Below, in pieces: positions 7,109 through 51,306 of a DNA stretch of 51,695 nt (position 1 is the first letter of the stretch; every line of letters begins with the position of its first letter). The notes beneath the pieces are model-generated. The model ran no database searches. It was not told where the DNA came from and worked only from the letters and a program-made list of their open reading frames with translations. Location of the stretch: positions 1-51,695 of the IMG/VR virus record IMGVR_UViG_3300038321_000080, one strand, 5' to 3'. Source of the DNA: a virus (taxonomy: Duplodnaviria; Caudoviricetes). The position numbers and the translations under genes are program-made.

Positions 7109-7885
7109 TTATATTACTTTCTGCTCAAATGAAAGTCTCATTTGTATACTACTTAGCATTTTGTTTTGTGCTGCATTATAGAATTTTTTATCTATTTCAA
7201 ATCCGTATGCGTGTCTATTCATTTCTGCGGCTGCTTTTAAAGTTGTTGCACTTCCTGCTACTGGATCAATAACAACATCTCCCTCGTCTGTAAATATTTC
7301 TATCAACTTTTTCAATATTGGTATAGGTTTCTGTGTAGGGTGAATTTTCGGTACTGAATTATCTGTTTTCCACTCCATCCAGTTAAATATCATTTTTCTG
7401 TTATTATTAAACTTAGGTAATTTATCTCTATATAGAACTATTGCGTGCTCTGTAGCTCCTACAATTTTCATGTTTGATTTTAGAACCTGCGAACTGTAAT
7501 TCTTTATGAAGAATAATGGATAACTATTGTTGAATCCGTATTTCTTGCCATAATTGATTACCATTTGCATTTGTTCAAAAGCACAGAATACAATCATTGC
7601 TGGTGCTTGTCCTCTTTCTTTAGGCTCTTTTTTTAATAGTTTACTGCAAAAGTGCATATATTCTGCTATTCTAAAATCCGAATCAGTATTAAAGAATTGT
7701 TTCCCTGCCTTACTACTCTCACCGTTCTTGTTATCTCCGTCTATATACCATTCAGTGCTTGAAGCATATGCGTTATTGCCTAAGTTGTAGGGGATATCAG
7801 CCAAAACAAGATTAGCTCTAGGGATATTATATTTTTTGTAATTTTGGAAATTATCATTATAAAGCTCCACTTTTACTTCTTTCAA
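7109..7885 (-). CDS. DNA N6-adenine/N4-cytosine methyltransferase (beta class)
   Basis: DIPY catalytic motif, HPTQKP, DPVAGSATT SAM motif, GFEID. Confidence 0.92.
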   Translation of the reverse strand: MKEVKVELYNDNFQNYKKYNIPRANLVLADIPYNLGNNAYASSTEWYIDGDNKNGESSKAGKQFFNTDSDFRIAEYMHFCSKLLKKEPKERGQAPAMIVFCAFEQMQMVINYGKKYGFNNSYPLFFIKNYSSQVLKSNMKIVGATEHAIVLYRDKLPKFNNNRKMIFNWMEWKTDNSVPKIHPTQKPIPILKKLIEIFTDEGDVVIDPVAGSATTLKAAAEMNRHAYGFEIDKKFYNAAQNKMLSSIQMRLSFEQKVI

Positions 7886-7901
7886 ATTAATTCCTCCTTT
7901 A

Positions 7902-8489
7902 TTAAAATTTTAAAAACCATTCTGGGCTTCTGTTTAAATCTGACATGTATTTCGCCTTAGAGATGAAAGGTTTAAAATCTTTTTTTAAATAATTTCTTAC
8001 CGACGTATCGCTCATATCTAACTCTTTGCATATTTCCCTTACAGTTAATCCTTTGCTTTGAAGTTCCCTTGCCTTCTCTTGCTTTATTATTCCTTGTTCG
8101 TCATGATATTGCCCTCTTAGTTTCTCTACCCTTATGTTTATAGTCGTTGGCATATCAGTATTTTTAATGTATCCTATTTGCATAGTATCTAAAGCAACCA
8201 CCGCAAATATATCAACTTCATTATCGCCATATCTTTTCTCACTATTAGCTCCTTTTCGTTTAATATTAAAAACATACGCCCCATTAACTCCGCGCCATTG
8301 ATTTGTTGTTCTATAAGTTTCTGTTGTCTTAACTTGCACCTTTAGAATCTTCTGGCCTGTGTCTAGCAACAAATCATAAGGTAATGTTTCACCAGCAGGC
8401 GAAACATTAAAACCTTTTAACAATAAATCTGCACATACTAGATACTCTCCCGCTTTCCCTATTTGAAATTTATCTGATACCCTTATCAT
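7902..8489 (-). CDS. PD-(D/E)XK homing-type endonuclease with C-terminal HTH
   Basis: G.AGEYLV..DL..KG...PYDLL...KVQVKT, similar to the group I intron-associated PD-(D/E)XK family; start trimmed to MIRVSD. Confidence 0.8.
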   Translation of the reverse strand: MIRVSDKFQIGKAGEYLVCADLLLKGFNVSPAGETLPYDLLLDTGQKILKVQVKTTETYRTTNQWRGVNGAYVFNIKRKGANSEKRYGDNEVDIFAVVALDTMQIGYIKNTDMPTTINIRVEKLRGQYHDEQGIIKQEKARELQSKGLTVREICKELDMSDTSVRNYLKKDFKPFISKAKYMSDLNRSPEWFLKF

Positions 8490-8518
8490 TGGTAATCCCT
8501 CCATTCCTTACTATATCT

Positions 8519-18596: not shown

Positions 18597-19385
18597 TTGC
18601 TTAGCATAATTGGTGTGTCACTTTTTATTCTCGGTGCTGTAGGATTTATTATGGCGTTGTTTGAATTTGACCTTACGATTATAGCATTAACATTTATAAC
18701 AATCCTTATATCTGTTTATTTAATGAAAGAATCTAGAAATAATAGAAAAAGTATCAAAATGGATATCAAAGAAGAAGTTCCTGAAGAGAAATCTAATAGT
18801 TCATTGAAAAGTACAATTGATATTCAATCTCCAGGGCCGCCTATTACTTTGAATACAAAAGCATCTTCTAGATGCAATATGGAAGATGAATTGTTGAAAG
18901 TTGATGACAAAAACGATAAACCAGAAGAAAATAATGAAAAAACATATAAAACATATACTTTTAAAGTAACTGGAATTTCGAAGAAAAACGATAAGGGAGA
19001 GAGTATACAGCAAAACATCAAGCAACTTGTAAAAGACTATATAGATGATGGAGGTATAAGATATGATGGTTTATCTAACAAAGAAATATTAGATAATAAT
19101 TACGATGCATATGAGGTCTATATTTATGGGTTCAATGAAATATCTTTAGTTCCAGAAGTAGATAACCAATATGATTCTAATGCTATAAAAGTAATACACA
19201 GCGAAATAGGCCATATAGGTTATGTTCCAAAAGAATCAAATAAAAAGGTTAAAGAACTTTTAGATAATAATTGTTCGATAAACTGGGAGTTAATAGGCGG
19301 TAAGATTAAATATGTTGATTGGGACGAATATAAGGTAAAGACAAAAACGCTAACCTATGGAGTGAAAATAGAATTGATTTATTAA
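18597..19385 (+). CDS. Membrane-anchored HIRAN-domain protein
   Basis: Two N-terminal TM segments; KVTG...EVDNQYDSNAIKV...IGYVP. Confidence 0.8.
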   Translation: MLSIIGVSLFILGAVGFIMALFEFDLTIIALTFITILISVYLMKESRNNRKSIKMDIKEEVPEEKSNSSLKSTIDIQSPGPPITLNTKASSRCNMEDELLKVDDKNDKPEENNEKTYKTYTFKVTGISKKNDKGESIQQNIKQLVKDYIDDGGIRYDGLSNKEILDNNYDAYEVYIYGFNEISLVPEVDNQYDSNAIKVIHSEIGHIGYVPKESNKKVKELLDNNCSINWELIGGKIKYVDWDEYKVKTKTLTYGVKIELIY

Positions 19386-21413: not shown

Positions 21414-21824
21414 TTATTTTAATTTTACTTTGTATAAAAAATCTATTATGTTTTCATAGTTATCGAATTTCTTTATCATATCTCTATAGGTCATGGTTTT
21501 AATTAATCTTTTTATGCTTTCTTTTCGACTGTGCAATTGTACTATTCTACCTCCTACCTTATACGATGTTTTATTCGTAATACATCTAGCTGTATCTATT
21601 ATATCCCATGCATTATCTAATTCATTTATTATTCTGTTTATATGCTTAATATAAGTATCAAAGTTTTTTAATATAGGGTCAACTTCTTCATGTGACGGGT
21701 CCTCTGGGTCATGGTTTACTAAGAAATTCGATTTTTCTAGCAAATCATCTGTTATTTCATTTAATTCTTTTTTAATGTCGTTCGCCCATTTAATTTGTCT
21801 TTCCGTTCCTTTTAAATTTTTCAT
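21414..21824 (-). CDS. Hypothetical protein with LxGTxRQIxWA motif
   Basis: MKNLKGTERQIKWANDIK; start trimmed. Confidence 0.75.
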   Translation of the reverse strand: MKNLKGTERQIKWANDIKKELNEITDDLLEKSNFLVNHDPEDPSHEEVDPILKNFDTYIKHINRIINELDNAWDIIDTARCITNKTSYKVGGRIVQLHSRKESIKRLIKTMTYRDMIKKFDNYENIIDFLYKVKLK

Positions 21825-21846
21825 CTTTTCCTCTCCTCTCAAATTA

Positions 21847-22395
21847 TTAATATTCCCAATCCTTGCATAAGTTGTTATCGTTTGTGTCAGGGATATTCCA
21901 ATAAGCTCTACATTCAGGAATATGAACTACCCAGTTGTTGCCTATTTTTTTTGTGTTTAAAAGTCTTTCTTGTTGACAAGCCTGTTTTACAGCACTTTCC
22001 GTTAGCCCTAGGTTTTCAACAATATATTTTATCCCAACCATTCCGTTTGTCATGAAAAGAGTTCTTTTTAATACTTCTGTGTTTAATTCTTTTTCTAAAT
22101 CCGAAAAATTTCTTTGTGGTTCTAGTCCGAATCTTAAATTCTTAATTTCGCTATTGTTTATATCATCTTCTAATTGCAAAACTGCATTTAATAAATATTC
22201 ATTCTTACAGTATTTTTCAATGTTCCTTCTAAGGTTTTTTACTGCTTCTTCGTAAGTTATTGTAAACTTGCTACCTTTTAAAATTCTGTCCATATCCCAA
22301 AGCGTAGAACATTTTAAGTTTGTATTCTTCTCTACCCATCTCACGCAAAGAACTTGTAATTTAACCATTTCCTTAATTAACCCTTTATTCTCCAT
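21847..22395 (-). CDS. C-terminal winged-HTH DNA-binding protein
   Basis: LGLTESAVKQACQQERL..TKKIGNNWVV. Confidence 0.7.
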   Translation of the reverse strand: MENKGLIKEMVKLQVLCVRWVEKNTNLKCSTLWDMDRILKGSKFTITYEEAVKNLRRNIEKYCKNEYLLNAVLQLEDDINNSEIKNLRFGLEPQRNFSDLEKELNTEVLKRTLFMTNGMVGIKYIVENLGLTESAVKQACQQERLLNTKKIGNNWVVHIPECRAYWNIPDTNDNNLCKDWEY

Positions 22396-22412
22396 TGCAA
22401 TCCCCTTTCTTT

Positions 22413-22470
22413 ATAGTCGTTATCGACTATCTGTTACTTATATTATAGTCGGTACCGACTATAAAGTCAA
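22413..22470 (-). promoter_or_regulatory. Sigma-A promoter with two palindromic operators
   Basis: TTGACT-17-TATAAT (22470..22442); perfect 22-bp palindrome TTATAGTCGGTACCGACTATAA (22443-22464); ATAGTCGTTATCGACTAT (22413-22430). Confidence 0.85.
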
Positions 22471-22502: not shown

Positions 22503-22534
22503 CAAAAGACTTGGTGTAAATACCAAGTCTTTTG
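22503..22534. terminator. Intrinsic terminator ending the SNF2-IbrAB operon
   Basis: CAAAAGACTTGGT-GTAAAT-ACCAAGTCTTTTG. Confidence 0.8.
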
Positions 22535-22550
22535 AATGAATCTATCGTCA

Positions 22551-22742
22551 TTACTTATATAAGTCCTCTATTTTCACTTTTAAATATTCAGCTACCTTCT
22601 GTAAGGTGCCAACTTTAGTATCGGATAAATCCTCTCTATTTACTAACTCGTGAGCAGTTTTATAATACATTCCTAAATCTGTAGCAAATTTATTTATTGA
22701 TATATCTCTTTCTTCCAATAAAGCCTTAATGTTATTTTTCAT
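22551..22742 (-). CDS. Cro/C1-type HTH protein
   Basis: XRE HTH pattern. Confidence 0.85.
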   Translation of the reverse strand: MKNNIKALLEERDISINKFATDLGMYYKTAHELVNREDLSDTKVGTLQKVAEYLKVKIEDLYK

Positions 22743-22751
22743 AGCGCCCTC

Positions 22752-23270
22752 CTATTTGATCCTGCAATTTATTTCTGAGTAATTTACCATATCATTCGTG
22801 GTATAGTTAAACATTATTTCTGTCATGACTTTTTTATATTTTTCGACATTGAAATCTTCTTTTAATTGGTCCTCAATGTTCTTTTTTAATCTCCTGGAGT
22901 ATTCTGTACTAAGTCCTACATACCTCATGGCTTTAATTTCTCCTGTTGCAGTATCGATTAAAGCAATATTACAAGCATAGCCTTGCCCTTCTTCTAGGTC
23001 CTGTAATTTAGTTAAGCTTTTGGATAATGCTACGTGGTAAGGAGCCTCCATCCACGGCATACTCCCAAACTTACAAAGTAGAAATATAACATTTTCTTTT
23101 GTAAACATACCAAATTGAAGTTTCCCTTTTCTTATATCGTCTATTTCTTCTTTTGTAGGATTTTTGAATAGTAATGATAACGTAGCTCCATCATCCGCCA
23201 TATTAAACCTAACACCTTGTTGAGAACCTTTTAATTCCTCTATTACTTGACCTACTTCATATTTATACAT
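22752..23270 (-). CDS. Hypothetical protein
   Basis: ORF with GGAGG RBS, in operon. Confidence 0.8.
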   Translation of the reverse strand: MYKYEVGQVIEELKGSQQGVRFNMADDGATLSLLFKNPTKEEIDDIRKGKLQFGMFTKENVIFLLCKFGSMPWMEAPYHVALSKSLTKLQDLEEGQGYACNIALIDTATGEIKAMRYVGLSTEYSRRLKKNIEDQLKEDFNVEKYKKVMTEIMFNYTTNDMVNYSEINCRIK

Positions 23271-23281
23271 ATTTACCCCTC

Positions 23282-23926
23282 CTATTTTACGTTTAATTTA
23301 CCTTCTTGAATCCTTTTTATCAAAACAGAAAGCCTTTTATGGTTAAGTTCTGTACCTACGAACTTTTTACCATACATATTGGAATAGTATCCTACAAGGC
23401 CCTGCCCCATACACAAGTCCCCAATGTACTCATATTCAATATTCTTGCATACCCATTCTATGATGTGCTGTTCGTCCATTCCGTCTAGCTTATAGTTTCT
23501 TCTTTTGCTAGAGCCCTGAATTACATAGCATAGTTTATCTTTAGAATGATAATAAGTGCTATTGTAGAAAGTTACATATTTAAATATTTTTCTCATTTGA
23601 ATAATAAAATCTGCTAAATGTTCTTTTCCTACTTCCACAAAACACATTTTAGGATTGATATCTTTTATTACAGTAAATAACCTTGTATAAAATTCTTTAA
23701 AGCTTTCTATTCTCTCCTCTTGTTCAGCTTTAAGATAAAACGTATTAAGATTTCCTAAATTCCACGGTGGATCTATAAACAACACATCTGACTTATACAT
23801 AAATTCAGGAGTTTTATTATAAATGTTATGGACTTGGATTATGCTGCCATCTTCAAATATATAAGGCCTACCTTCTTCTAAAGGGTATTCTTTATATATG
23901 TCGCCATAATTATATTTCACTCTCAT
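23282..23926 (-). CDS. Amino-methyltransferase-like protein (beta order)
   Basis: FIDPPW motif IV precedes DLCMGQG motif I and GTELN motif II. Confidence 0.8.
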   Translation of the reverse strand: MRVKYNYGDIYKEYPLEEGRPYIFEDGSIIQVHNIYNKTPEFMYKSDVLFIDPPWNLGNLNTFYLKAEQEERIESFKEFYTRLFTVIKDINPKMCFVEVGKEHLADFIIQMRKIFKYVTFYNSTYYHSKDKLCYVIQGSSKRRNYKLDGMDEQHIIEWVCKNIEYEYIGDLCMGQGLVGYYSNMYGKKFVGTELNHKRLSVLIKRIQEGKLNVK

Positions 23927-24500
23927 CTACCTCCTGCATCTCCCACCCTTTCGAATAGGTTTGGTTTCTAAACAAATAGGCTATACCTGTAACTTGTTTA
24001 AGTCTAAACACTTCTTCTAGTTCCATTCCCAAATGTTCAGCTATTTCTTCATCATCTGCTCCTTGGTCGAATAAAGCTTTTACTAAATCTCCCATTAGTT
24101 CTACTTGGTGAACACCTCTGGCCCTATTAAATTGTACTGTAGCACTCATTCTTTGCTTAGCATCTTGTTCTAGTACAACTATAGGCATTTCCTTGCATCC
24201 TAACCAATCAGCAAGAATTGTGTACCTGTGAAATCCATCCACTATAACAAACTTTTCTATTTCATCATCCCACACGGTTACTATAGCAAAGGCAAAGCCA
24301 TTGTCTACTATTGAAGTTTTCAACAATTCCATATTCTGCTTATCTACATGATTAGGATTATAATTGTTTGCAGCTACAAGTTCCGTAGGCACCAGTATAG
24401 GACAAAATACTGGTAGTGATAGTATTTCGCCATTTTTCATTTTTATTTTTGGAGCATCTGGTATTTCAAAAACTCCATATTCAGTTTCTATTCTTCTCAT
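23910..24500 (-). CDS. ParB/Srx-domain protein, IbrB/YbdM-like
   Basis: ANNYNPNHV...SI..NGF..IV...IVDGFHR...RMSATVQFNRARGVH; start trimmed to MRRIET. Confidence 0.9.
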   Translation of the reverse strand: MRRIETEYGVFEIPDAPKIKMKNGEILSLPVFCPILVPTELVAANNYNPNHVDKQNMELLKTSIVDNGFAFAIVTVWDDEIEKFVIVDGFHRYTILADWLGCKEMPIVVLEQDAKQRMSATVQFNRARGVHQVELMGDLVKALFDQGADDEEIAEHLGMELEEVFRLKQVTGIAYLFRNQTYSKGWEMQEVDESEI

Positions 24501-25624
24501 AGTATTTCCCTCCATTTCCGTAATGTCTTTTCTCTCGGGTCCTCTTTATTGTCTACTGGTAGATTGTTTTCATAATCATTTAATATTAGTTGTCTACATT
24601 GCTGCCTAGCTACATAGTTATTATCTAAGTGTCTTGCAAATCTTTTTTCAAATATCCATTTTTTTGATTCATCTGGATATGTTTTAAGCAGAAAATCTCT
24701 ATATTCTCTCCAACTTTTATAGTTCTTAGGTAATTTTCTTACCTTTAACATTTTGCTATCTTTCCCATAAAGCTTTCCAATACTTATTCCCTTAATTCTT
24801 TTAAGTAGTTTATCGTAAGTTTTAGGTTCAAACTCTGGCAAATCTACTAAAGCCTTAAAAGATTTCTCATGGATAAGACTGGATACTCTTATTTCTTGTA
24901 GTCCCATTCCCTTCTTATGCTGGTAGTCATATATCTTGCTGTATTTTAAATCATTATCGTAAATATATTTCCATATATCGTGGAAGTTCCAGTCATACAA
25001 AGGATAAGCATTAACGCTGCCATTTCCTATGTCGGTGGTCCAACACCAGTCTTTATGCCCTGGATGTGAAGATACAGCTTTCCATCTATGAGGGCTTTCT
25101 GTAGCTCTTAATCCTATACAAAAGCAAGTGTTAGGTCTACTTCTCTGGAAGTTTTCAAGCGCATCATAGAATCCAAAACCTTTATTTTTATCTCTTACTG
25201 TTTCCGTTTCCTTTGGCCAAGGTTTATATTGTATCGAATCTGGTCTCTTGGACCTCATCCAAATATCAGACTTCCCTCTCTCCCAACATATAAGCTGTCC
25301 ATCTTCAAAGGAAGTTGCATTTGTTAAGTTAAACTCAATTTGATACCATAACTTAATGGTGTTTTCAGGATACATATTCATAATGTAATCTACTTGTTTA
25401 ACCGTGCTGTCATAGACTACTTCCTCGTCTAGGAAGAATATTCCTATCCTTCTGTCTCTTCTCCTTGCCTCCTGTAGCACTAGATGCGCCAATACAGTAC
25501 TATCCTTTCCTCCGCTAATGGATACACAAATATTTTCAAAGTCATCGAATATTTTCGATATCCTCTCTTTTGCACATTCTAAAACTGTCTTATTTATATA
25601 AATTTGCTTGAGCATAAAAGGCAT
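24497..25624 (-). CDS. PAPS-reductase-like PP-loop protein, IbrA/YbdN-like
   Basis: SISGGKDS PP-loop, GLRATES..R, YPLYDW...DIW. Confidence 0.9.
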   Translation of the reverse strand: MPFMLKQIYINKTVLECAKERISKIFDDFENICVSISGGKDSTVLAHLVLQEARRRDRRIGIFFLDEEVVYDSTVKQVDYIMNMYPENTIKLWYQIEFNLTNATSFEDGQLICWERGKSDIWMRSKRPDSIQYKPWPKETETVRDKNKGFGFYDALENFQRSRPNTCFCIGLRATESPHRWKAVSSHPGHKDWCWTTDIGNGSVNAYPLYDWNFHDIWKYIYDNDLKYSKIYDYQHKKGMGLQEIRVSSLIHEKSFKALVDLPEFEPKTYDKLLKRIKGISIGKLYGKDSKMLKVRKLPKNYKSWREYRDFLLKTYPDESKKWIFEKRFARHLDNNYVARQQCRQLILNDYENNLPVDNKEDPREKTLRKWREIL

Positions 25625-26462
25625 CTAACCTCGCTTTCCACTTCGTAAAATCCGTTACTATAAAATTATCTATAGATAAATCTGTAGCTACATATGTTAT
25701 CTTAGACATCTTGTTATTAATAAGAAAATCAATAAACTGTATCCTACTATAATGCGTATCTAATACTATATAGTTCTTCCCTTTTTCGTAGTTATTGTAG
25801 GAATATACATTATCTAACTTAAATCTTTGATTTCTAGCAATGTATATTTTATCTTCTTCAATTGCTGTCCTCTTAAAATCTCCTGCTAATAGCTGTAACT
25901 TTCTAGGTATAGTATTAGGGTCCTTGTTCCCTATGTTATTAAAAAGCTTTTCTTTTTGTTTTTCGTATTTTCCCTTTTGCTTTTCTGTTATAGAAACGTT
26001 TATAATGTTCATCTTAACTACCTTTGGATTAATCAATATATCCTCAGATTGCAGTATTTTATAGTCAAATTTATCTACATGCTTACTAGCTTTCTCAAAT
26101 TTCATTAGAATCATAAAATCATTTTTATCGTTTACAAACGGAAAAGTAGAAAATATAATCCTATGTTCTGTTTGATTTAGAAATATTGTTGCACAATTGT
26201 ATTTTAGGTCCTGCAAATTTGTAGTTCTAAATACTTCATCTACTATAACTAATGTATCTTTGTCTATCTTTTCTATTAGAGGATAAAAAGTTCTGTACAT
26301 TTCCCATTCGTTATATTCTACATACTCAGCATCAATAGAAAACTTATATCTTGTATCATGTTGCTTTGTATTTAATACGATTACTTGTTTGATATTGTTT
26401 TCTTCGATATATTTATTTACTATTTCTTGTTTTTGTCTTGGTCCAAATCCAATTCTAAGCAC
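25590..26462 (-). CDS. Degenerate SNF2/SF2-like protein
   Basis: LVIVDE Walker B-like motif, no Walker A; segment ITEKQKGKYEKQKEKL parallels LTEWQYHHYENVKDSL of the neighbour. Confidence 0.6.
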   Translation of the reverse strand: MLRIGFGPRQKQEIVNKYIEENNIKQVIVLNTKQHDTRYKFSIDAEYVEYNEWEMYRTFYPLIEKIDKDTLVIVDEVFRTTNLQDLKYNCATIFLNQTEHRIIFSTFPFVNDKNDFMILMKFEKASKHVDKFDYKILQSEDILINPKVVKMNIINVSITEKQKGKYEKQKEKLFNNIGNKDPNTIPRKLQLLAGDFKRTAIEEDKIYIARNQRFKLDNVYSYNNYEKGKNYIVLDTHYSRIQFIDFLINNKMSKITYVATDLSIDNFIVTDFTKWKARLDAFYAQANLYK

Positions 26463-27819
26463 CTATTTCACCTCCGTCTATTATAGCTTCTAAATGATTC
26501 TTGTTATTAAGCAAATAAGTAATATAAGAATCAAGGCTTTCTTTCCTGGATAAATTCCTTATAATCATTTCATCAATTTTGCTATCAGCAATAATATCTG
26601 TAATGTATACAGGCTTATCTTGTCCAATCCTATGAACTCTGTCTTCTGACTGTGCCCTGGTACCCCAATCAAAGTCATTAGAATAATAAATCATATTGTT
26701 GCAAAATTGAAGGTTTAAGCCATAACCGCCACAACTCTTGTTTGCTATAAGAAATTGAGAATCTCCAATAAATTTATCTAATTCTTTATCCCTCTTTTTA
26801 AGTGGTATATCGCCATTGAATATAGCTACATCTTTGCCCATTTCTTTAAGTACCTGGCTTATTTCTTCTATTTCAAAAGTATATTTAGTCCAGATTATAT
26901 ACTTTTCATCGGATCCGTCAATATTGTTTAATAAAGCTTCTATCCTTGGATTATCTTTAGGATTTTTGAAGAAAGGTTTATGTTCTAATCTTCCCCCAGT
27001 CTTTGTAATCATTCTTCCACTAGTTATTAACTGCAATGCAGTTAATAATCTATAGATAGTACTAGGTTCAAATTCATCTACATCAGCTAATAAAGAATCC
27101 TTGACGTTTTCATAATGATGGTATTGCCATTCTGTTAGCTCAAAGTAATAATCATAATAATTTTTCTTTGGTAATTTAGTTTCAATTTCTGATTTCTTTA
27201 ATTGATAGCTATATGGAGCTATTTTATTAGTAAGGTAATCAACATTTAAAACTCTTCTAATTCTACCGTATTTATCATATTCTAAATGATTTGCAGCAAA
27301 GCTCCAATACGTTCTATAACCAAAAATTCTACTGTCCAATATATACCATTGGCTATAAAGGTCAGCTTCGTTTCTAGTTACCGGAGTACCATTTAAGATT
27401 AATTTATACTCAGCCAGCTTTGATAATTCAATAATTCTTTGTGTCCTTTTCGCATCCCAGTTTTTCACTAGGCTGCTTTCATCTACAATTATATAAGCTT
27501 TATTCTTTGCCATAACGTCTAATGCTTTTAAATAAGCTCTATCGGACATCGAAATAGATTCTATTCCCATAATTGTAGTATTTTCAAGAAGCCCTCTTGA
27601 ATGTTTTAATATATCCCTTTTTAAATTAGTTTTTACCGAACAGGGGCATAGCCATAGAACATGGTTGATTTTTCCCCTATCATATCTATTTTTTATTAAT
27701 TCTATGGCCGTTCTTGTCTTACCAAGTCCCATATCCATATATAGAGCTCCTACTTTAATTTTTCTAAGTTTCTTATATGCCGGGACTTGGTAAGGAAGTA
27801 AGTTTGTTAAAAGCTCCAT
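26455..27819 (-). CDS. SNF2-family ATPase/helicase
   Basis: MDMGLGKT, IVDESS, LNGTP, GYGLNLQ, QSEDRVHRIGQ. Confidence 0.93.
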   Translation of the reverse strand: MELLTNLLPYQVPAYKKLRKIKVGALYMDMGLGKTRTAIELIKNRYDRGKINHVLWLCPCSVKTNLKRDILKHSRGLLENTTIMGIESISMSDRAYLKALDVMAKNKAYIIVDESSLVKNWDAKRTQRIIELSKLAEYKLILNGTPVTRNEADLYSQWYILDSRIFGYRTYWSFAANHLEYDKYGRIRRVLNVDYLTNKIAPYSYQLKKSEIETKLPKKNYYDYYFELTEWQYHHYENVKDSLLADVDEFEPSTIYRLLTALQLITSGRMITKTGGRLEHKPFFKNPKDNPRIEALLNNIDGSDEKYIIWTKYTFEIEEISQVLKEMGKDVAIFNGDIPLKKRDKELDKFIGDSQFLIANKSCGGYGLNLQFCNNMIYYSNDFDWGTRAQSEDRVHRIGQDKPVYITDIIADSKIDEMIIRNLSRKESLDSYITYLLNNKNHLEAIIDGGEIGA

Positions 27820-27830
27820 ATCATCACCCC

Positions 27831-28220
27831 TTAATCATCAATTAAGTCTGGAATAATATATACATCTGGAATTCCTAACTTTGGTACTTTTCTTTTTTTC
27901 TCAACTTTCTCTATTATATTTTTATTTATCAATTGAAATATTTCCTCAAACTCCTCAACTGATATTTCGTCCTCTTTTAAAATATCGTATTTATTATACT
28001 TACCTCTTCCGTATTTCTTTAATTTAAAAACAAATCCATCAAAGTATTTTAATGTTATTGCATTTGTATGAGGACCTTCTTTAGTTAACTTGTTGGGGTG
28101 CCAAAAGCTGTAGTTCTTATATTGAGAGTTATTTGGCATCTTTATAAGAGTTGCGCTGTCTCCTTCAAAAAGTATATTACTCTTGTTTATGTTTATACTT
28201 TTCAAACACATCATCCCCAT
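27831..28220 (-). CDS. Hypothetical protein ending DLIDD
   Basis: ORF in operon; exact start uncertain. Confidence 0.75.
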   Translation of the reverse strand: MGMMCLKSININKSNILFEGDSATLIKMPNNSQYKNYSFWHPNKLTKEGPHTNAITLKYFDGFVFKLKKYGRGKYNKYDILKEDEISVEEFEEIFQLINKNIIEKVEKKRKVPKLGIPDVYIIPDLIDD

Positions 28221-28476
28221 ATCTAGCCTTTAATGTATCTATGTCTTTATTTGTTAAATCGTCCAGCAAAATCCCATGCTCGAGATTTTGTTCCCCTCCC
28301 CAATTCCAACTATCATTTTGTTCTATATAAAACTTGCCATCTTTGGATATATAGACGTAACAATTTTGATAATCGTCTACATTGTGTCCCGAATTCATTT
28401 TTCTTTGTAAATATATTTCCGTCTCCACTATGTCCATATCAATTAATTTTTTCTTGTTCTTATAAAATGCTTTCAT
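28177..28476 (-). CDS. Hypothetical protein
   Basis: ORF with GGGGG RBS. Confidence 0.65.
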   Translation of the reverse strand: MKAFYKNKKKLIDMDIVETEIYLQRKMNSGHNVDDYQNCYVYISKDGKFYIEQNDSWNWGGEQNLEHGILLDDLTNKDIDTLKARYGDDVFEKYKHKQE

Positions 28477-28488
28477 TATTCATCCCCC

Positions 28489-29643
28489 TTAATCATCTAT
28501 TAAATCTTCTAATATATCTGTGCTAGAATTTAATATTGCTTCTAATCCATCTGCATTTTTTTCTTCCTCAACTGCTGCAGGTATAACCGTTTCAATTTTT
28601 TCTATTTCTTTTTTGTACTCATCTATTAATTTTCTAGCTCCCTTTGAAAACTTAAAGTCGTATAACTCTGCAAATTCTTCTACTTCTTTATAATATTCTA
28701 CTTTAACCATAACTGCAGAATCCCACCTACTGCCTGGTAAGCTTCTAGCAGTCTTATAAAGGCTTTCATTATACCCTTCCCATTTGATAGATAGTTTACC
28801 TTTATGTTCGCCTTTTGTTCTTGCATATATCCATCTGGTGTGTTCCTTTTCGTATTCTCCTTTTATAGCTTTATCTCTTATTTTTTTATCTAATATCATT
28901 ATCGGGAAACCTTTGTTTAATAACTTATTACCTACCTCAGCTACTCTATTTCTATAATCTCCAGTAGTATAGTCTAATTCCTTGCACCACACTCCACTAT
29001 CCCAATAATATCCTAAGCCTTTGACTAGCAGTCTAAAATCTTCATTTTTCTTAAACTTCAATGTGATTTCTTCTGCTGTGAAGCTTATTTCTACAGGTAC
29101 ATCTGTTACTTTGTCCTCTGGATATACTATACTTTCTATTTTTTCTTTCTCTATAAGTTTTTCCTGGTGTTTTTCTTCATCAGGTTTTAACGCATCTTTT
29201 ATTTCATCTTCAATTATTTTAACTATATATCTATCTCTATTGTCTATATAATAGCTTGAAGATATCTTGCTTTCTATTATATAGTCTCTTATATCTATTA
29301 CCTTCTCTTTAGTTAAGTCTAGTTCGTATAAGTCAGATATTTCTTTAATCGTCTCTTCATCTTCGGAAAGGTTTGTAAACTTCTCTATTAGCTCTTGCCT
29401 AAGTGTATTCGCCCAGGAAATTTGTCTAGGAGTACCAGCTAGTTCTGGTAACTCCATTTCCTTTGCTAGTTTTTTAGATTCTTCATTTGCTTTCTGTCTT
29501 CGTTCTTCTAAGTGTCTTTCCCAGCATTCAGGACACATCTTTGAAAATTGTCTATCCGCTTTCCATTGTCTGTCTTTCATAGGGCCTATTATATTAACCC
29601 TGCCTTCGTGTCCACAGTTATAAGTTCCGTAATACCACGCCAT
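28489..29643 (-). CDS. Multidomain protein: Zn-finger, GTxRQIxWA motif, two HARP-like repeats, DLIDD tail
   Basis: CGH...CPEC; LAGTPRQISWANTLR; VKGLGYYWD..VW and YNESLYKTARSLPGSRWD; start trimmed to MAWYYG. Confidence 0.7.
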   Translation of the reverse strand: MAWYYGTYNCGHEGRVNIIGPMKDRQWKADRQFSKMCPECWERHLEERRQKANEESKKLAKEMELPELAGTPRQISWANTLRQELIEKFTNLSEDEETIKEISDLYELDLTKEKVIDIRDYIIESKISSSYYIDNRDRYIVKIIEDEIKDALKPDEEKHQEKLIEKEKIESIVYPEDKVTDVPVEISFTAEEITLKFKKNEDFRLLVKGLGYYWDSGVWCKELDYTTGDYRNRVAEVGNKLLNKGFPIMILDKKIRDKAIKGEYEKEHTRWIYARTKGEHKGKLSIKWEGYNESLYKTARSLPGSRWDSAVMVKVEYYKEVEEFAELYDFKFSKGARKLIDEYKKEIEKIETVIPAAVEEEKNADGLEAILNSSTDILEDLIDD

Positions 29644-29672
29644 ATGATTACCCCTTCCCAGCCTGTCGTTCA

Positions 29673-30317
29673 TTAATAAGTATGTGTTAAAGAAAATAAT
29701 GCTTGTTTGATATCTCCTTCTTCAATTGCTTCAACTGCTATCTTTATTCTAATTATTTTATCTGTTATTGCCTGTTCTCTCTCATCGGTTCCTAATATGT
29801 TTCTTACTAATCTGAAATCATGCAAACCTGTTGCTAGTGTATCTTTTAGTTCTTCCATAGTTGTTTCACCCTCTTGTACTTCTTCGAGCAGGTCTTTTAC
29901 TAAGTAAAATTGTTGATTAATAGCTCTTTCGAGCCTTTCTATTAAAGTTTCTTCTCTAGAATCCCTCTCATATTTACTTCTCCAAGCCTCTAGCCCTGCT
30001 CTGTCAATATAGTAGCAACATCTATAAGCACCGTTCATGTCATAATTTTCATTTCTAGCAAACGTATTATTCAATTCTGTTTCAATTCTTTCATGTATAT
30101 AATCTTCATTAATTTTTGCACTTTCGTCTATGAAGCCACTTAACTCCTCCATTAGATTCTTTACAAAATCTCCTATATAGCCACTATTATCTATATAGTT
30201 TTCCTCTTCCATTTCCTTTTTAATTGCAACTTGAATTTCTTTACCTAGCTCTTTACACTTTTTAATTATAATCTTCGTATCTTCCCATAGTTTTCCATTA
30301 TGATCGCTTGTTTTCAT
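29673..30317 (-). CDS. Hypothetical protein
   Basis: ORF with AAGGAG RBS. Confidence 0.75.
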   Translation of the reverse strand: MKTSDHNGKLWEDTKIIIKKCKELGKEIQVAIKKEMEEENYIDNSGYIGDFVKNLMEELSGFIDESAKINEDYIHERIETELNNTFARNENYDMNGAYRCCYYIDRAGLEAWRSKYERDSREETLIERLERAINQQFYLVKDLLEEVQEGETTMEELKDTLATGLHDFRLVRNILGTDEREQAITDKIIRIKIAVEAIEEGDIKQALFSLTHTY

Positions 30318-30429
30318 CTATATAGTCTCCTTTTTTTATAGTCGCCCTTTTGGGCTACATACAACATTAACTTTAATTTTTCCATTTCGTCATAATATTT
30401 TTCCTCTCTTTCATACTAGGGCTAATACT

Positions 30430-31161
30430 CTATGCTATGTAGCCTTCTCTTTTCACTCCGTATATATCTTCGAATTCTTCGTCTGTCATTTTTTCTGCTT
30501 CTTCATATAATTTGTTATATCTGCTACTATTATTGTTTGTTGCTTTCTTAGCTGTTTCTTTTTCATAGCCTTTTTTGTAGATATAAATTTTTCTGGTTTG
30601 GCTTTCAAACGCTTCTGTTAATTCATCTTTTAGCATGAAGTTTCTTTTATTGTTTCTTATCCATTCTTCTTTCTTTCTGAAAAAATAGCCTTCATTCAAC
30701 TTCTCTATTTCTTTATGACTTTCTCCTAAGATGTAATAGTTTCTATGCCCTATTTTCTCAATTTCTAATTCTTCTATTTCGTTGAAGTATTTATCTATTT
30801 TATTTTTATTATCTTCATATTCTCCTAATATTTCATTTCTCACTTTTTCGTCTACTGTTATACCTAACATTCCTTTTAAGGGTCCTGCCTTTACTTCATC
30901 ATTAAAAGCTATAAGGTTATTCTTCTCTAATTTATTAATATATTCGCTTTCTCCTATTGCTTTCCCTTCAAGGTATACTGTCAATTTTTCAGTTACTTCA
31001 ACTTCAAACTTTAATCCTTTCTTACTAAAGTTTATCATCTCTTCTTCCTCCTCATTTAGAAGGTAGCTAAGACATAATCCGAATTGCACTTGATAATCTA
31101 CCTCATATTTCTTCACCATTTCTCTTGTCATTTTATGTGCCTCTACAAATATCTTTTTCAT
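30430..31161 (-). CDS. Hypothetical protein, first gene of the accessory operon
   Basis: ORF with GGAGG RBS downstream of a consensus promoter. Confidence 0.8.
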   Translation of the reverse strand: MKKIFVEAHKMTREMVKKYEVDYQVQFGLCLSYLLNEEEEEMINFSKKGLKFEVEVTEKLTVYLEGKAIGESEYINKLEKNNLIAFNDEVKAGPLKGMLGITVDEKVRNEILGEYEDNKNKIDKYFNEIEELEIEKIGHRNYYILGESHKEIEKLNEGYFFRKKEEWIRNNKRNFMLKDELTEAFESQTRKIYIYKKGYEKETAKKATNNNSSRYNKLYEEAEKMTDEEFEDIYGVKREGYIA

Positions 31162-31199
31162 CTTTGCTACCTCCTTGTTTTATTTTATCTTATGTATAT

Positions 31200-31235
31200 A
31201 TTATAACCTTTGCAGCATATGATGTCAAGGTTATA
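31200..31235 (-). promoter_or_regulatory. Perfect-consensus sigma-A promoter overlapped by an inverted repeat
   Basis: TTGACA-17-TATAAT (31228..31200); TATAACCTT...AAGGTTATA (31202-31235). Confidence 0.85.
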
Positions 31236-48366: not shown

Positions 48367-51306
48367 TCACCTCCCGATCAATTCTAAGAATTCTGTTCTA
48401 TGATCGAAATATATTTTATAACAAATTCCCATAGTTACTGCGCCATCAATCTTTTTGTTTGGTTTCCCCTCAGGTTTCACTATTAATATTTCTTGCTTTG
48501 AATTAATGTTTAATGCTGCGTTTTCAAGGCACCATTTATCGATTGGATTATCGTTATATATTACCAAATTGCTTTTTAAATCAGCTTCTAACATTTTATA
48601 AGGGTTTGACAGTGTTCCGTGATCTTGATTTACTCTTTCCATATCAAAACCGTATTCCTCCATATCTTTAACAAAATATACTGCACTCCATTTGTCATAT
48701 CCTGTTAAAAACACCCTTATCCCATAGCTTTTGTATAAATCAATAAACCACTTAGTAACTAAACTAAAATCATTCTCATTCCCAGGAGAAACAGTTATTA
48801 ACTCATCTCTTATCCATTGTTCAAATTTAGGTTTATCTTCTCTAGGTAATTTTTCTATTTTAGATTCTGGTATAAAATATTGCTGATGAAAATACTTTTC
48901 TCGACTACCTGGTTTCATTAATAAAACTCTTGCACTACATAAGTCACCAGACCTAGCTAAATCTACTCCACCTATGCCAAACGAATTTCTAAATTTTTCT
49001 AATTCAAAAGTTACTTCGTTTTCTATATCCTCTAAAGTTAGCCAAGCAGATGAATTATTTTGCTTTATGTTGAAGTCTTTAGACAGTACAAATGCTCTAG
49101 TGGCTTTATTTGTTTTTGCTTCTTCAATCATCCCCCTTAAAAAGGACCATTTTTTTATTGAACCAAGTCCCGGATTACTCTTGAACCAAGTCTTTTCATC
49201 TTGCCATATTTCTCGTTCATTATCCTGTGTGTATATCCATATTAGCCATCTAGGTCTTTCTATTTCTCCATATAGCACTTTTCTAGCATCTTCTAACCTT
49301 TCATCCAGATATCCATTATTCACCATGCCCTCAGTTGTTAACTCAAAATATAGAGGTTCATCTTGCGTTGATAAAGCTTGTCTAATAGGCATTACCAAGG
49401 AATTATCTTTCATCTCATGAGCTTCATCTACTGCCCCTACTTTTATATTCCTTCCTTCCTTAGCTCCTGTTTTAGCAGATATTTTTCTTATACTCCCTTT
49501 GTTAGCGTATGAAAATTTGCCTTTGGTTTTTTTGTTTTTTGGATTCCCAAAGAATATGCCTTTTATATTACTTCTTGAAACCTTTTCCAATGCCGAACTT
49601 TCTTCTCTCATGGAATCAATAGCTTGAAACATTATGTCAGCTTGTTCATAATCGTTGCTACTGCAAAGAATTTTAGTTCCTCTCTCTCCGCAGAACCATT
49701 CAGCTAAACAAATGGCACTAATAAGGGGCGAATTATGCGTTACAGTCATTCTCTCTCCTGCTAGATAAAGGTTGTTAGGAGAATCTACCCCTATACATTT
49801 TGTTTGAACACTTTCAATTTCAGCAACATCAATAATGCTTTTGTTTTTCATTCTTGGGGCTAGATGTCCCTTGAGCCTTTCGTGTTTTCTCTTTAATTTA
49901 AAACAAGAGTTTGTTTTATCGCAATAAAAAAGAACTGAATACACAGTTCCCACTTCTTTGCCATTACATTTCGCTGTTTTTTCTCTAATTGTATGTTTTA
50001 TCCCTAATGAAGAAAGCAACTCACTGAAATTATTTATTATTATTTTGCTTTTCTGAACAAATTCGCATTGCCCTCTTTTATCAGCATATCCATCTGTATC
50101 CATTAATCCTTTTAGTAATTCCATTCTTTGCTTTATTGATGAATGGAGGTATATATTAGGTATATGTTTGTTGTTAAGTACGCCTAGTTCTTTTAATTGC
50201 TCTTTTATTGTAATATACTTTGAATCCCACTTTGGTCTTTCTGTTCCTGCCTTTCTCGCCCTGCGGAGTTCTTTTTCGCATACTAGACAAGTGCCATTAG
50301 TGCCTGTATGTTTGCTTTTTAAGTGACCTCTACGGCAATATTCTGTATTCTTCTTGTTTTTTAGTCTAATTCTAAGGTTTATATCTGCTCCGTTTTCTAT
50401 GCTAATATCAATTCCATCATCTTTTAAGTATTGTATAATTTCAATATCTTTAGAATTTACAGTTACTCTTGCATCACTTGATTCTCCATCTCCTAACCAC
50501 ACACCCAAAGTATACGGAGATACTAATAAATCTTTTTCCTTATATTTAACAGCTTCATTCATCGGTACTCTATATTTGTATTCTTTACCTTTTCCATCTT
50601 TTCTCACTCTTACAAAATCATTAACCATTTTTTCTGTTGTTATATCGAAGTACCCATTGTTATCTCTATAATCTGGTCTTAAAAGTTTTCTATCACTTTT
50701 TGGTTCATAATTCAATACTCTCCTGCTATTTTTAGTCATAACAGTCCATACATGATTAGCATCTGCAACTATAGTTTCTCCATCTTCAAACGTTACTTTA
50801 TAACACTTATGGTCAGTAAATATTCTAGATGTTCTAATAATTTTGGTTGCATTGCCTTTTTCGTCAAATACATAATCCCCAACATCTAATTCACTCATCC
50901 TTTTCCAACCTGTTGGTGTTGGAATTGGAGTATTGATATCTAAAGCTTTCCCATTTTTCCTACCAACCAGATATAGTATTTCTTGGTATAATCTTACAAG
51001 TCCTTCAACCTCTTCGTCGTATATTTTAAAAATGTATATAGCTTCAATGAATGCTTTTTGAAATAACTCCAAAATAAAAGGTTTCCCAGCAAAGGGAGCC
51101 TCAAAGTGTTTACATTTAGTTTCTATGAATTTTATTCTTTTGTGAGCGTCTTTAAAATCTATTGTTATTGAAGGATCATCAAAATGTTCTACTAATCTAT
51201 TTAGACACAATATCATTTCATGACCTACTATTATTTCTCCACTTTTGCATTTGTTTATATATTCAACTAGCCATGAATGCACTCCGTTAATATTCTCATT
51301 TAACAT
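48367..51306 (-). CDS. terL: Terminase large subunit, intein-containing
   Basis: GRKNGK|S Walker A, VDEAH Walker B, GVDLA, KIDG nuclease motifs; 574 aa after splicing. Confidence 0.95.
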   Translation of the reverse strand: MLNENINGVHSWLVEYINKCKSGEIIVGHEMILCLNRLVEHFDDPSITIDFKDAHKRIKFIETKCKHFEAPFAGKPFILELFQKAFIEAIYIFKIYDEEVEGLVRLYQEILYLVGRKNGKALDINTPIPTPTGWKRMSELDVGDYVFDEKGNATKIIRTSRIFTDHKCYKVTFEDGETIVADANHVWTVMTKNSRRVLNYEPKSDRKLLRPDYRDNNGYFDITTEKMVNDFVRVRKDGKGKEYKYRVPMNEAVKYKEKDLLVSPYTLGVWLGDGESSDARVTVNSKDIEIIQYLKDDGIDISIENGADINLRIRLKNKKNTEYCRRGHLKSKHTGTNGTCLVCEKELRRARKAGTERPKWDSKYITIKEQLKELGVLNNKHIPNIYLHSSIKQRMELLKGLMDTDGYADKRGQCEFVQKSKIIINNFSELLSSLGIKHTIREKTAKCNGKEVGTVYSVLFYCDKTNSCFKLKRKHERLKGHLAPRMKNKSIIDVAEIESVQTKCIGVDSPNNLYLAGERMTVTHNSPLISAICLAEWFCGERGTKILCSSNDYEQADIMFQAIDSMREESSALEKVSRSNIKGIFFGNPKNKKTKGKFSYANKGSIRKISAKTGAKEGRNIKVGAVDEAHEMKDNSLVMPIRQALSTQDEPLYFELTTEGMVNNGYLDERLEDARKVLYGEIERPRWLIWIYTQDNEREIWQDEKTWFKSNPGLGSIKKWSFLRGMIEEAKTNKATRAFVLSKDFNIKQNNSSAWLTLEDIENEVTFELEKFRNSFGIGGVDLARSGDLCSARVLLMKPGSREKYFHQQYFIPESKIEKLPREDKPKFEQWIRDELITVSPGNENDFSLVTKWFIDLYKSYGIRVFLTGYDKWSAVYFVKDMEEYGFDMERVNQDHGTLSNPYKMLEADLKSNLVIYNDNPIDKWCLENAALNINSKQEILIVKPEGKPNKKIDGAVTMGICYKIYFDHRTEFLELIGR
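49732..50946 (-). mobile_element. Class-3 intein (405 aa) with LAGLIDADG endonuclease
   Basis: Starts ALDINTPIPTPTGW, ends VTHN|S; NHVW, TKCIGV, LGVWLGDG, LKGLMDTDG. Confidence 0.92.

Follow-up and report, generated by a model that had tools for sequence, protein, structure and literature searches.

The minimal set for DNA phosphorothioation is described as an enzyme of the PAPS-reductase fold and a nucleoside triphosphatase (NTPase) (PMC12914056). Dnd, Ssp and BREX type 4 share this pairing of a PP-loop enzyme of the PAPS-reductase fold with an NTPase, and DndB is a ParB-family partner (PMC12914056, PMC12839542). IbrA and IbrB of Escherichia coli, named YbdN and YbdM in strain K-12, are a protein with PAPS_reduct and DUF3440 domains and the product of an overlapping ParB-like gene. 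Here we analyzed a cassette in which an IbrA/IbrB-like pair is coupled to SNF2 proteins and a DNA methylase. It is carried by the virus record IMGVR_UViG_3300038321_000080, whose whole single sequence of 51,695 nt is referred to as the window. The analysis suggests, with a probability slightly better than even, that the cassette puts a chemical modification, probably via adenylation, on the DNA of its own phage and thereby guards it from host defences. The operon consists of 12 minus-strand open reading frames (ORFs) running from 31161 to 22551. Its features, in the direction of transcription, are as follows.

31202..31235, no strand: 34-bp imperfect palindrome over the promoter, candidate operator (14/17 pairs)
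31200..31228, minus strand: sigma-70 consensus promoter TTGACA-17-TATAAT (12/12 consensus match)
30430..31161, minus strand: U243, variable leader gene (match of the first 40 aa to phrog_33044, E 4e-5)
29673..30317, minus strand: U214, variable gene without a family match (profile searches, related loci)
28489..29673, minus strand: U394, predicted multidomain DNA-structure sensor (folds, fusions, co-occurrence)
28177..28476, minus strand: U99, variable gene without a family match (profile searches, related loci)
27831..28220, minus strand: U129 (phrog_27058), alternative SNF2 leader gene (homologs precede SNF2 elsewhere)
26455..27819, minus strand: minimal SNF2 ATPase with intact helicase motifs (Pfam)
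25590..26462, minus strand: dead SNF2, two-lobe fold without the Walker A GKT (model, Foldseek)
24497..25624, minus strand: short-clade IbrA-like PP-loop enzyme (PAPS_reduct and DUF3440)
23910..24515, minus strand: IbrB-like ParB/Srx domain with helix-turn-helix (HTH)-like helices (phrog_2159, E 9e-50)
23282..23926, minus strand: small protein resembling beta-class DNA amino-methyltransferases (profile matches, DPPW)
22752..23270, minus strand: U172 (phrog_12389), recurrent accessory gene (found in related loci)
22551..22742, minus strand: Cro-like HTH protein, last gene, candidate operon repressor (HTH_26, E 7e-9)
22503..22534, minus strand: terminator-like 13-pair hairpin (z -4.0)

Unlike Dnd, Ssp and BREX type 4, the cassette is carried by a phage, and its motor is an SNF2 protein rather than DndD, SspC or BrxC. 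It has no DUF4007/SspB, PglZ, DndE or restriction genes, and its IbrA lacks a cysteine-rich Fe-S region. Tdp is presumably likewise a phosphorothioation system with a PP-loop enzyme and an NTPase. Searches with PADLOC, NCBIfam and Pfam, covering 14 proteins of the region and the conserved clusters, found no DndD/SspC/BrxC, SspB/DUF4007, PglZ or DndE. IbrA matched the DndC and BrxP models weakly (E 3e-5 and 1e-7). Membership in Dnd, Ssp or BREX type 4 was rejected on these weak matches and on the lack of partner genes and Fe-S cysteines. Judged by its sequence, the cassette resembles DNA-modification systems built on a PP-loop enzyme and an NTPase, yet lies outside all three. Compared to the E. 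coli pair, the window IbrA belongs to a short, 375-aa clade with its own C-terminus. Pairs of this clade also follow a dead SNF2, are usually accompanied by a methylase, and are coupled to U394/SNF2 or to Csf proteins. Literature searches, which extended to papers other than subscription papers and supplements, found no description of the cassette. The available text of a paper on BREX diversity mentions neither DUF3440, IbrA nor HARP (PMC12839542).

A first-pass annotation of the window had proposed an operon of overlapping or abutting minus-strand genes. All the genes it named are where it placed them, and all ten junctions from U214 to the HTH gene fall within -44 to +12 nt. Its gene list was incomplete: there are 12 ORFs in the operon, and U394 and U129 are also cassette members. 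It had also called for profile and neighbourhood searches, and gene content compared across viral genomes established that co-occurrence is wide, in sets of 72, 71 and 48 viral loci. With the PP-loop protein as query, 72 loci were counted by tblastn without dereplication; ParB was found in 72, dead SNF2 in 62, methylase in 60, SNF2 in 45, U394 in 33, U172 in 6 and the HTH in 1. Dead SNF2 as anchor gave 87 loci (79 plus 8 from other searches), which were reduced to 71 at 90% identity. These contain IbrA (71), IbrB (70), methylase (66) and U172 (14). For U394, the best 80 of 262 matches gave 79 loci, 60 after dereplication, and 48 of these had at least 6 kb downstream. SNF2, IbrA and IbrB are each present at 46 of the 48, dead SNF2 at 8, methylase at 9 and U172 at 15.

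The conserved core is U394-SNF2-dead SNF2-IbrA-IbrB-beta-class methylase. U129 also belongs to the cassette, and the HTH is not core. The genes from SNF2 to methylase keep the core status given to them earlier, whereas the HTH (1/72) and U172 (6/72) lose it. From the dead SNF2 and methylase counts in the dead-SNF2 and U394 sets, two subtypes can be drawn. One has four genes, and its IbrA is long (as trimmed, mostly 404-457 aa). The other is the window form, with a 375-aa IbrA, dead SNF2 and methylase. The earlier listing of the cluster did not capture that dead SNF2 and methylase mark only one subtype, and it missed U394 as a DNA-structure sensor and the exchange with Csf genes described below.

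Relatives of IbrA occur in 207 records of the phage collection. Dead SNF2 is present in 2 of 399 sampled genomes, one of which is the seed, and a scan of genome contigs gave one locus. Dead SNF2 was not found among INPHARED phages or PLSDB plasmids, and no cultured phage with the exact subtype of the window was identified in INPHARED. Related loci contained no U243, U214 or U99 homologs, and U172 gave no usable fold match. Scanning 145 of 251 accessory ORFs revealed eight GNATs in or beside seven loci and glycosyltransferase-like genes at two loci, one of them below the cut-off. Among these ORFs, no family of nucleases is a constant part of the loci. Two tandem IbrA/IbrB pairs, two GNAT genes and a divergent methylase are seen at locus L134 (and L112).

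The PP-loop and ParB proteins were recognized from the start as IbrA/IbrB-like, and this is well founded. The window IbrA combines PAPS_reduct (57.9 bits, cut-off 22.5) and DUF3440 (41.1 bits, cut-off 25) in one protein, and is 29-39% identical to proteins annotated as IbrA in Flavobacterium and Streptococcus phages. Its gene overlaps that of IbrB by 19 nt, and a ParB-like gene is present at 70 of 71 loci. Catalytic motifs were counted in 69 short-clade sequences. In IbrA, SGGKDS is invariant (69/69), and R[VI]S[SN]L[IV]HE and RQxCRQ are nearly so (64/69 and 63/69). IbrB carries DG[FY]HR in 67/69, and its profile matches Noc/ParB (E 1.5e-10) and also SerK/SbnI. Cysteine motifs are rare in IbrA (CxxC 3/69, CC 1/69), and C343 is the single conserved cysteine. 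ECG, the catalytic C-terminal cysteine motif of CysH reductases, occurs in 0/69. Because of the CxxC and ECG counts, an Fe-S cluster and sulfate reduction appear unlikely for IbrA.

The first-pass annotation had taken the lack of an Fe-S cysteine cluster as a sign of possibly non-sulfur chemistry. The lack is real, but it speaks only against an Fe-S cluster, and C343 is conserved. Its second argument was the lack of a cysteine desulfurase in the operon. This inference fails and was rejected, because host IscS/SufS replaces the missing desulfurase in phosphorothioate systems (PMC12914056, PMC12839542); sulfur chemistry is therefore possible. PP-loop enzymes act by AMPylating the molecules they work on (PMC8175902), and by analogy the chemistry of IbrA may be adenylation. 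Literature searches found no IbrA/IbrB biochemistry. Regulation of YbdN/YbdM by YbdO has been reported (PMC9068703), and phage IbrAB are mentioned in passing (PMC4541368, PMC8813620, PMC11318856).

SNF2 matches SNF2-rel_dom (E 1e-17) and Helicase_C (E 1e-11) in Pfam, and its motifs GxGK, DES, GT and QxxxRxxR are invariant (23/23). In the dead SNF2, the ATPase motifs are lost. Among 69 sequences GxGK[TS] occurs in none and GxxxxxK in 63, and the Walker B position reads NE in 40, DG in 12 and DE in 9. Its model (pLDDT, the predicted local distance difference test, 95.7) matches ISWI in Foldseek with an E-value of 2.7e-7, and TMq to ISWI/Snf2h is 0.58-0.65. The dead SNF2 family aligns with the adjoining SNF2 family (E 1e-4), and its profile has no sequence match in the PDB. 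At one locus (L101:7576-9861) SNF2 and dead SNF2 are fused in a single 762-aa frame; this is a single contig, and a sequencing error is possible.

Folding predicted a contact between IbrA and dead SNF2. The predicted complex scored 0.75, compared to 0.00 for the best of three controls. The mark used for this score is reached by 116 of 157 solved pairs and 2 of 215 mismatched pairs, and is rough here since our own alignments were used. The runs have at least 33% of contacts in common, and partner pLDDT is at least 87. In the model, the last helix of IbrA (364-375) packs against dead-SNF2 residues 170-189 and 263-267. On the dead-SNF2 side, conservation of the contact exceeds that of random residue sets (0.71 vs 0.54), of which 1.3% score as high. 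P182 and P186 are found in 70/70 dead-SNF2 sequences; on the IbrA side, position 371 is W or Y in 70/70, and L375 is present in 69. The dock patch aligns with SNF2 residues about 244-259, which suggests that dead SNF2 is a duplicated dock. Dead SNF2 is predicted by the model to be a docking adaptor for IbrA. The translocase-coupled complex envisaged in the first-pass annotation is supported by this predicted contact and by the gene fusions.

U394 has no Pfam family. Its model (pLDDT 90.6) contains an N-terminal Cys-pair segment resembling a zinc ribbon, an AcrIE7/AcrIF23-like domain (75-163), two alpha/beta domains (189-264, and 278-348, of which the latter is HARP/UvsW/XPB-like) and an acidic tail. 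The U394 profile matches AcrIF23 (E 2e-5) and AcrIE7 (E about 0.02). In structure comparison, residues 75-163 gave a Z-score of 5.2 with AcrIF23 (root-mean-square deviation, rmsd, 1.9) and 4.7 with AcrIE7, and GSEKQ..WA and IDNR motifs are common to these proteins. AcrIE7 binds single-stranded DNA (ssDNA) via K6 and R49 (PMC12002350). Counted on the profile alignment, K6 corresponds to U394 position 83 (K/R in 136/140) and R49 to position 146 (R in 132/140). Unlike AcrIE7 and AcrIF23, this helical domain is internal to a 394-aa protein, and the Cas2/3-binding loop of AcrIF23 (residues 17-28), through which it works, lies outside the region matching U394 (PMC9270243).

Residues about 278-348 resemble the N-domain of T4 UvsW (Z 5.6 and rmsd 2.2 over 62 aligned residues) and the N-domains of two archaeal XPB proteins (Z 4.9 and 4.4). 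All three values are below 8. SMARCAL1 has two HARP domains and UvsW has one, N-terminal to a superfamily 2 (SF2) motor (PMC4666394). Here, the predicted sensor domains precede SNF2 either as an upstream gene or fused to it. Fusions of the U394 C-terminal half before SNF2 were found in L113 and L120 (E 3e-42 and 8e-39), two loci that are separated on the IbrA tree. A weak alignment with this half was also seen for Atlas models of other SNF2 proteins. Compared to SMARCAL1 and UvsW, the cassette motor is usually split over two genes, has additional zinc-ribbon-like and AcrIE7-like domains, and is coupled to enzymes. We infer that U394 and SNF2 form a split SMARCAL1-like motor, in which U394, as modelled, may sense ssDNA or bubbles. 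U129 shares with U394 a terminal DLIDD tail, and its homologs stand immediately before SNF2 in phages D4276 and CHPC1062 and about 300 nt upstream in L221. The L161 and L181 groups contain U394 homologs with no acidic tail and no SNF2 or IbrAB within 7 kb, several of them on large phage contigs. This is consistent with the acidic tail being needed only with SNF2.

The window methylase alone falls below the Pfam cut-off. Its family profile matches DpnA (E 2.6e-8) and also CcrM and MboIIA. DPPW precedes the S-adenosylmethionine-binding motif, and D52/P54 and C172-G174-G176 are invariant (28/28). These features identify it, at the level of sequence, as a small beta-class DNA amino-methyltransferase. 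Some beta-class methylases act on single-stranded or opened DNA. Every characterised part of the cassette, namely SNF2, the ParB/Noc-like IbrB and the DpnA/CcrM-like methylase, appears by homology to handle DNA.

Related cassettes or IbrA-IbrB pairs are also carried by cultured phages. In D4276, a virulent phage (PMC6060171), acrIIA5-U129-SNF2-long IbrA-IbrB form one run downstream of endolysin. CHPC1062 has the same order, and 126 of 140 residues of its first gene product are identical to AcrIIA5. In phiCs5676-1, U394-SNF2-IbrA-IbrB is flanked by endolysin on one side and integrase on the other. In the cluster B mycobacteriophage Athena, IbrA-IbrB lies immediately before terminase, in the slot occupied by dpdA/queC/folE in Rosebush. 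These genes are proven to modify DNA: they place dPreQ0 on about 28% of Gs in Rosebush, whose DNA resists several restriction enzymes (PMC6884629). Protection of phage DNA, one of the options raised in the first-pass annotation, is the best fit to the Athena/Rosebush slot and the acrIIA5 run. The present analysis adds the contact predicted between IbrA and dead SNF2, the residues that U394 has in common with AcrIE7, the link to acrIIA5 and the Athena/Rosebush slot.

In the mechanism we favour, the cassette would be expressed early from its strong promoter, under repression by the HTH protein. U394 or U129 with SNF2 would find or open single-stranded bubbles, and dead SNF2 would hold IbrA. IbrA would adenylate DNA, on backbone or base, and IbrB may assist via its own nucleotide chemistry or by DNA loading. 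The methylase, elsewhere an acetyl or sugar transferase, would complete, guide or accompany the mark, which would shield phage DNA from host defences.

Several observations weigh against this reading. The closest solved sequence relatives of IbrA, CysD and FAD synthase, have small-molecule substrates, and database record notes name IbrA/IbrB as co-activators of prophage gene expression. The IbrA contact residues are not above average in conservation (0.67 vs 0.76). The methylase is missing from most U394 loci; because it is present at only 9 of the 48, the core reaction does not depend on it. The Athena/Rosebush slot is one positional pair, in phages without the SNF2 arm of the window. For U394, all structural Z-scores are below 8, a level that the tool grades as common, the 189-264 domain matches the generic eIF1/YciH fold equally well (Z 5.6), and the two alpha/beta domains align weakly with each other (hhalign probability 2%). 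Its model returned nothing in Foldseek at E <= 0.001, and Pfam HARP matched 0 of 26 family members. Modification, substrate and phenotype are all at the level of prediction for every member.

Relatives of the same four-gene core also adjoin type IV-B CRISPR-Cas genes, at 19 of the 71 dead-SNF2 loci. PADLOC identified Csf2, Csf3, Csf1 and Cas11 in representative ORFs of related loci, and a CysH-like gene is present at 17 of the 19 Csf loci. Unlike these, the window has no csf1, cas11, csf2, csf3 or cysH-like gene among the 14 ORFs scanned in the region. Of the 71 loci, 46 contain SNF2 without Csf and 18 contain Csf without SNF2, while one has both and six have neither; three of these six end at a contig edge. 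For the 46 loci flanked by 4 kb or more on each side the numbers are 30, 12, 1 and 3. U394 is present at 40/47 SNF2 loci and 0/24 others. Fisher p-values for this exclusivity (7e-11 and 1e-7) are inflated by relatedness and were not relied on. On an IbrA tree made by a quick method with SH-aLRT support only, from which the incomplete L124 was left out and to which the window was added, the SNF2/Csf label changes nine times. At least five changes are forced by branches starred for SH-aLRT, with no direction.

The available text of a review of type IV-B systems mentions no accessory other than the CysH-like protein and describes these systems as having no crRNA (CRISPR RNA)-processing enzyme (PMC8175902). 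We found Cas6-like genes within two Csf-type cassettes (L115:7130-8011 and L122:5651-7522). L126 is the sole locus where the U394-SNF2 arm and csf genes flank one enzyme core. A Csf complex may replace the motor as an alternative targeting arm in about a quarter of loci. A broader model, which we hold only tentatively and would not expect to be correct in full, is that one IbrA-IbrB-methylase core, docked via dead SNF2 and aimed by a SMARCAL1-like motor or by RNA-loaded Csf, installs a non-sulfur, adenylate-derived protective mark. Such a modular DNA-writing machine would give a function to IbrA/IbrB and to type IV-B systems, and the latter would possibly be RNA-guided DNA modifiers. IbrA/IbrB occur in E. 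coli K-12 and many phages, and the cassette links this pair with type IV-B systems. It also offers points of attack for direct tests: a protein contact from the predictions, candidates for catalytic residues, and three phages that can be cultured on non-pathogenic hosts, namely D4276 of Streptococcus thermophilus, Athena of Mycobacterium smegmatis and phiCs5676-1 of Clostridium scindens.

Host defences might instead be countered directly, with no lasting mark on DNA. U394 would then shield ssDNA, SNF2 would close the R-loops or bubbles that CRISPR or restriction complexes open by rewinding them, and IbrA and IbrB would AMPylate a host protein or else produce or degrade a nucleotide signal. The AcrIE7/AcrIF23-like domain, the acrIIA5-linked cassettes of D4276 and CHPC1062 and the likeness of IbrB to SerK/SbnI kinases are in keeping with this. 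The strong promoter, candidate operator and terminal HTH also follow the pattern of acr-aca operons. Type IV-B systems have been proposed as anti-CRISPR (PMC8175902). However, a DNA methylase fixed in 66 of 71 dead-SNF2 loci and the Athena/Rosebush slot are left unexplained, and AcrIF23 acts via a loop outside the common region (PMC9270243). We regard direct action as rather unlikely. A lysogen could alternatively use the mark to tell its own DNA from that of invaders, which it would restrict or stall; this is an anti-phage role that the first-pass annotation had offered. The moron position of the cassette in the lysis-integrase interval, in the window and in phiCs5676-1, agrees with this, and the combination of a modification enzyme with SNF2 recalls the general plan of DISARM, BREX and Dpd (PADLOC matches were weak). 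Yet the core and the scanned accessory genes hold no conserved nuclease or toxic effector, and the dead-SNF2 subtype is rare in chromosomes. The anti-phage role is weak because related cassettes sit in virulent phages such as D4276 beside an anti-CRISPR gene, and it is judged improbable.

We consider a regulatory or replication helper just as improbable. Here the motor would act on forks or promoters, with IbrAB as co-activators of phage genes. The combination of HARP and SNF2 is the hallmark of fork-reversal enzymes (PMC4666394), the co-activator wording of database records points the same way, and IbrB has HTH-like helices. This role does not account for the invariant PP-loop, the coupled methylase, the GNAT and glycosyltransferase-like additions or the Csf exchange, and the cassette lies outside the replication module of the window. 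Very improbable indeed is an auxiliary metabolic gene encoding a PAPS reductase for sulfate assimilation. The PHROGs label of phrog_2302, which IbrA matches, and the PAPS_reduct match suggest it, and papers class such genes under host metabolism (PMC11318856). However, IbrA scores far under the cut-offs for CysH/PAPS/APS reductases (34.4 vs 165.1 and 27 vs 254 bits), the cysteine motifs of such enzymes are rare or missing, and its conserved neighbours handle DNA. PAPS reductase identity was rejected on the scores and the missing ECG. Phage IbrA copies are widely mislabelled as sulfur-metabolism genes.

The window is a temperate tailed phage, because it encodes an integrase, a CI-like repressor and replication, terminase, portal, capsid and lysis genes. 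Clostridia and bacilli are the main source of named homologs, and the G+C content is about 32%, from which a low-GC Bacillota host may be inferred. The cassette promoter, noted as perfect in the first-pass annotation, is the only perfect TTGACA-N16-18-TATAAT in the 51.7-kb window. The window has three palindromes of the 34-bp, 14-of-17 kind, and the terminator is another of the three. A repressor probably acts at the promoter palindrome, and the HTH protein at the operon end is a candidate. Other Cro-like HTHs are located downstream of the methylase in L024, L097 and L098. The terminator proposed at 22503 was likewise borne out, with 2 of 200 shuffles doing as well; a simple terminator scanner did not pick up this hairpin. 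The operon had been placed between lysis genes and attP. It does lie between holin/endolysin and the integrase, with another operon, of two genes, intervening; attP was not located in the window.

This two-gene operon (21414-22470, minus strand) encodes a 182-aa protein with a likely C-terminal HTH, recognized by eye, followed by one of 142 aa that shares the AcrIF23/AcrIE7-like domain of U394 (E 9e-9, small database). Two palindromes related to each other (22409-22430 and 22445-22466) overlap its TTGACT-17-TATAAT promoter, and it looks like an autoregulated anti-CRISPR-type operon. A HIRAN-domain protein (18597-19385, plus strand) has the CI-like repressor on one side and the integrase on the other. 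A second, ordinary N6/N4 methylase adjoins a PD-(D/E)XK protein (7109-8504, minus strand). An Rfam search of the window returned tRNA only, and a tRNA gene is located at 598-682 on the minus strand. The 979-aa terminase large subunit (48367-51306, minus strand) contains an inserted LAGLIDADG homing-endonuclease domain, which is probably an intein.

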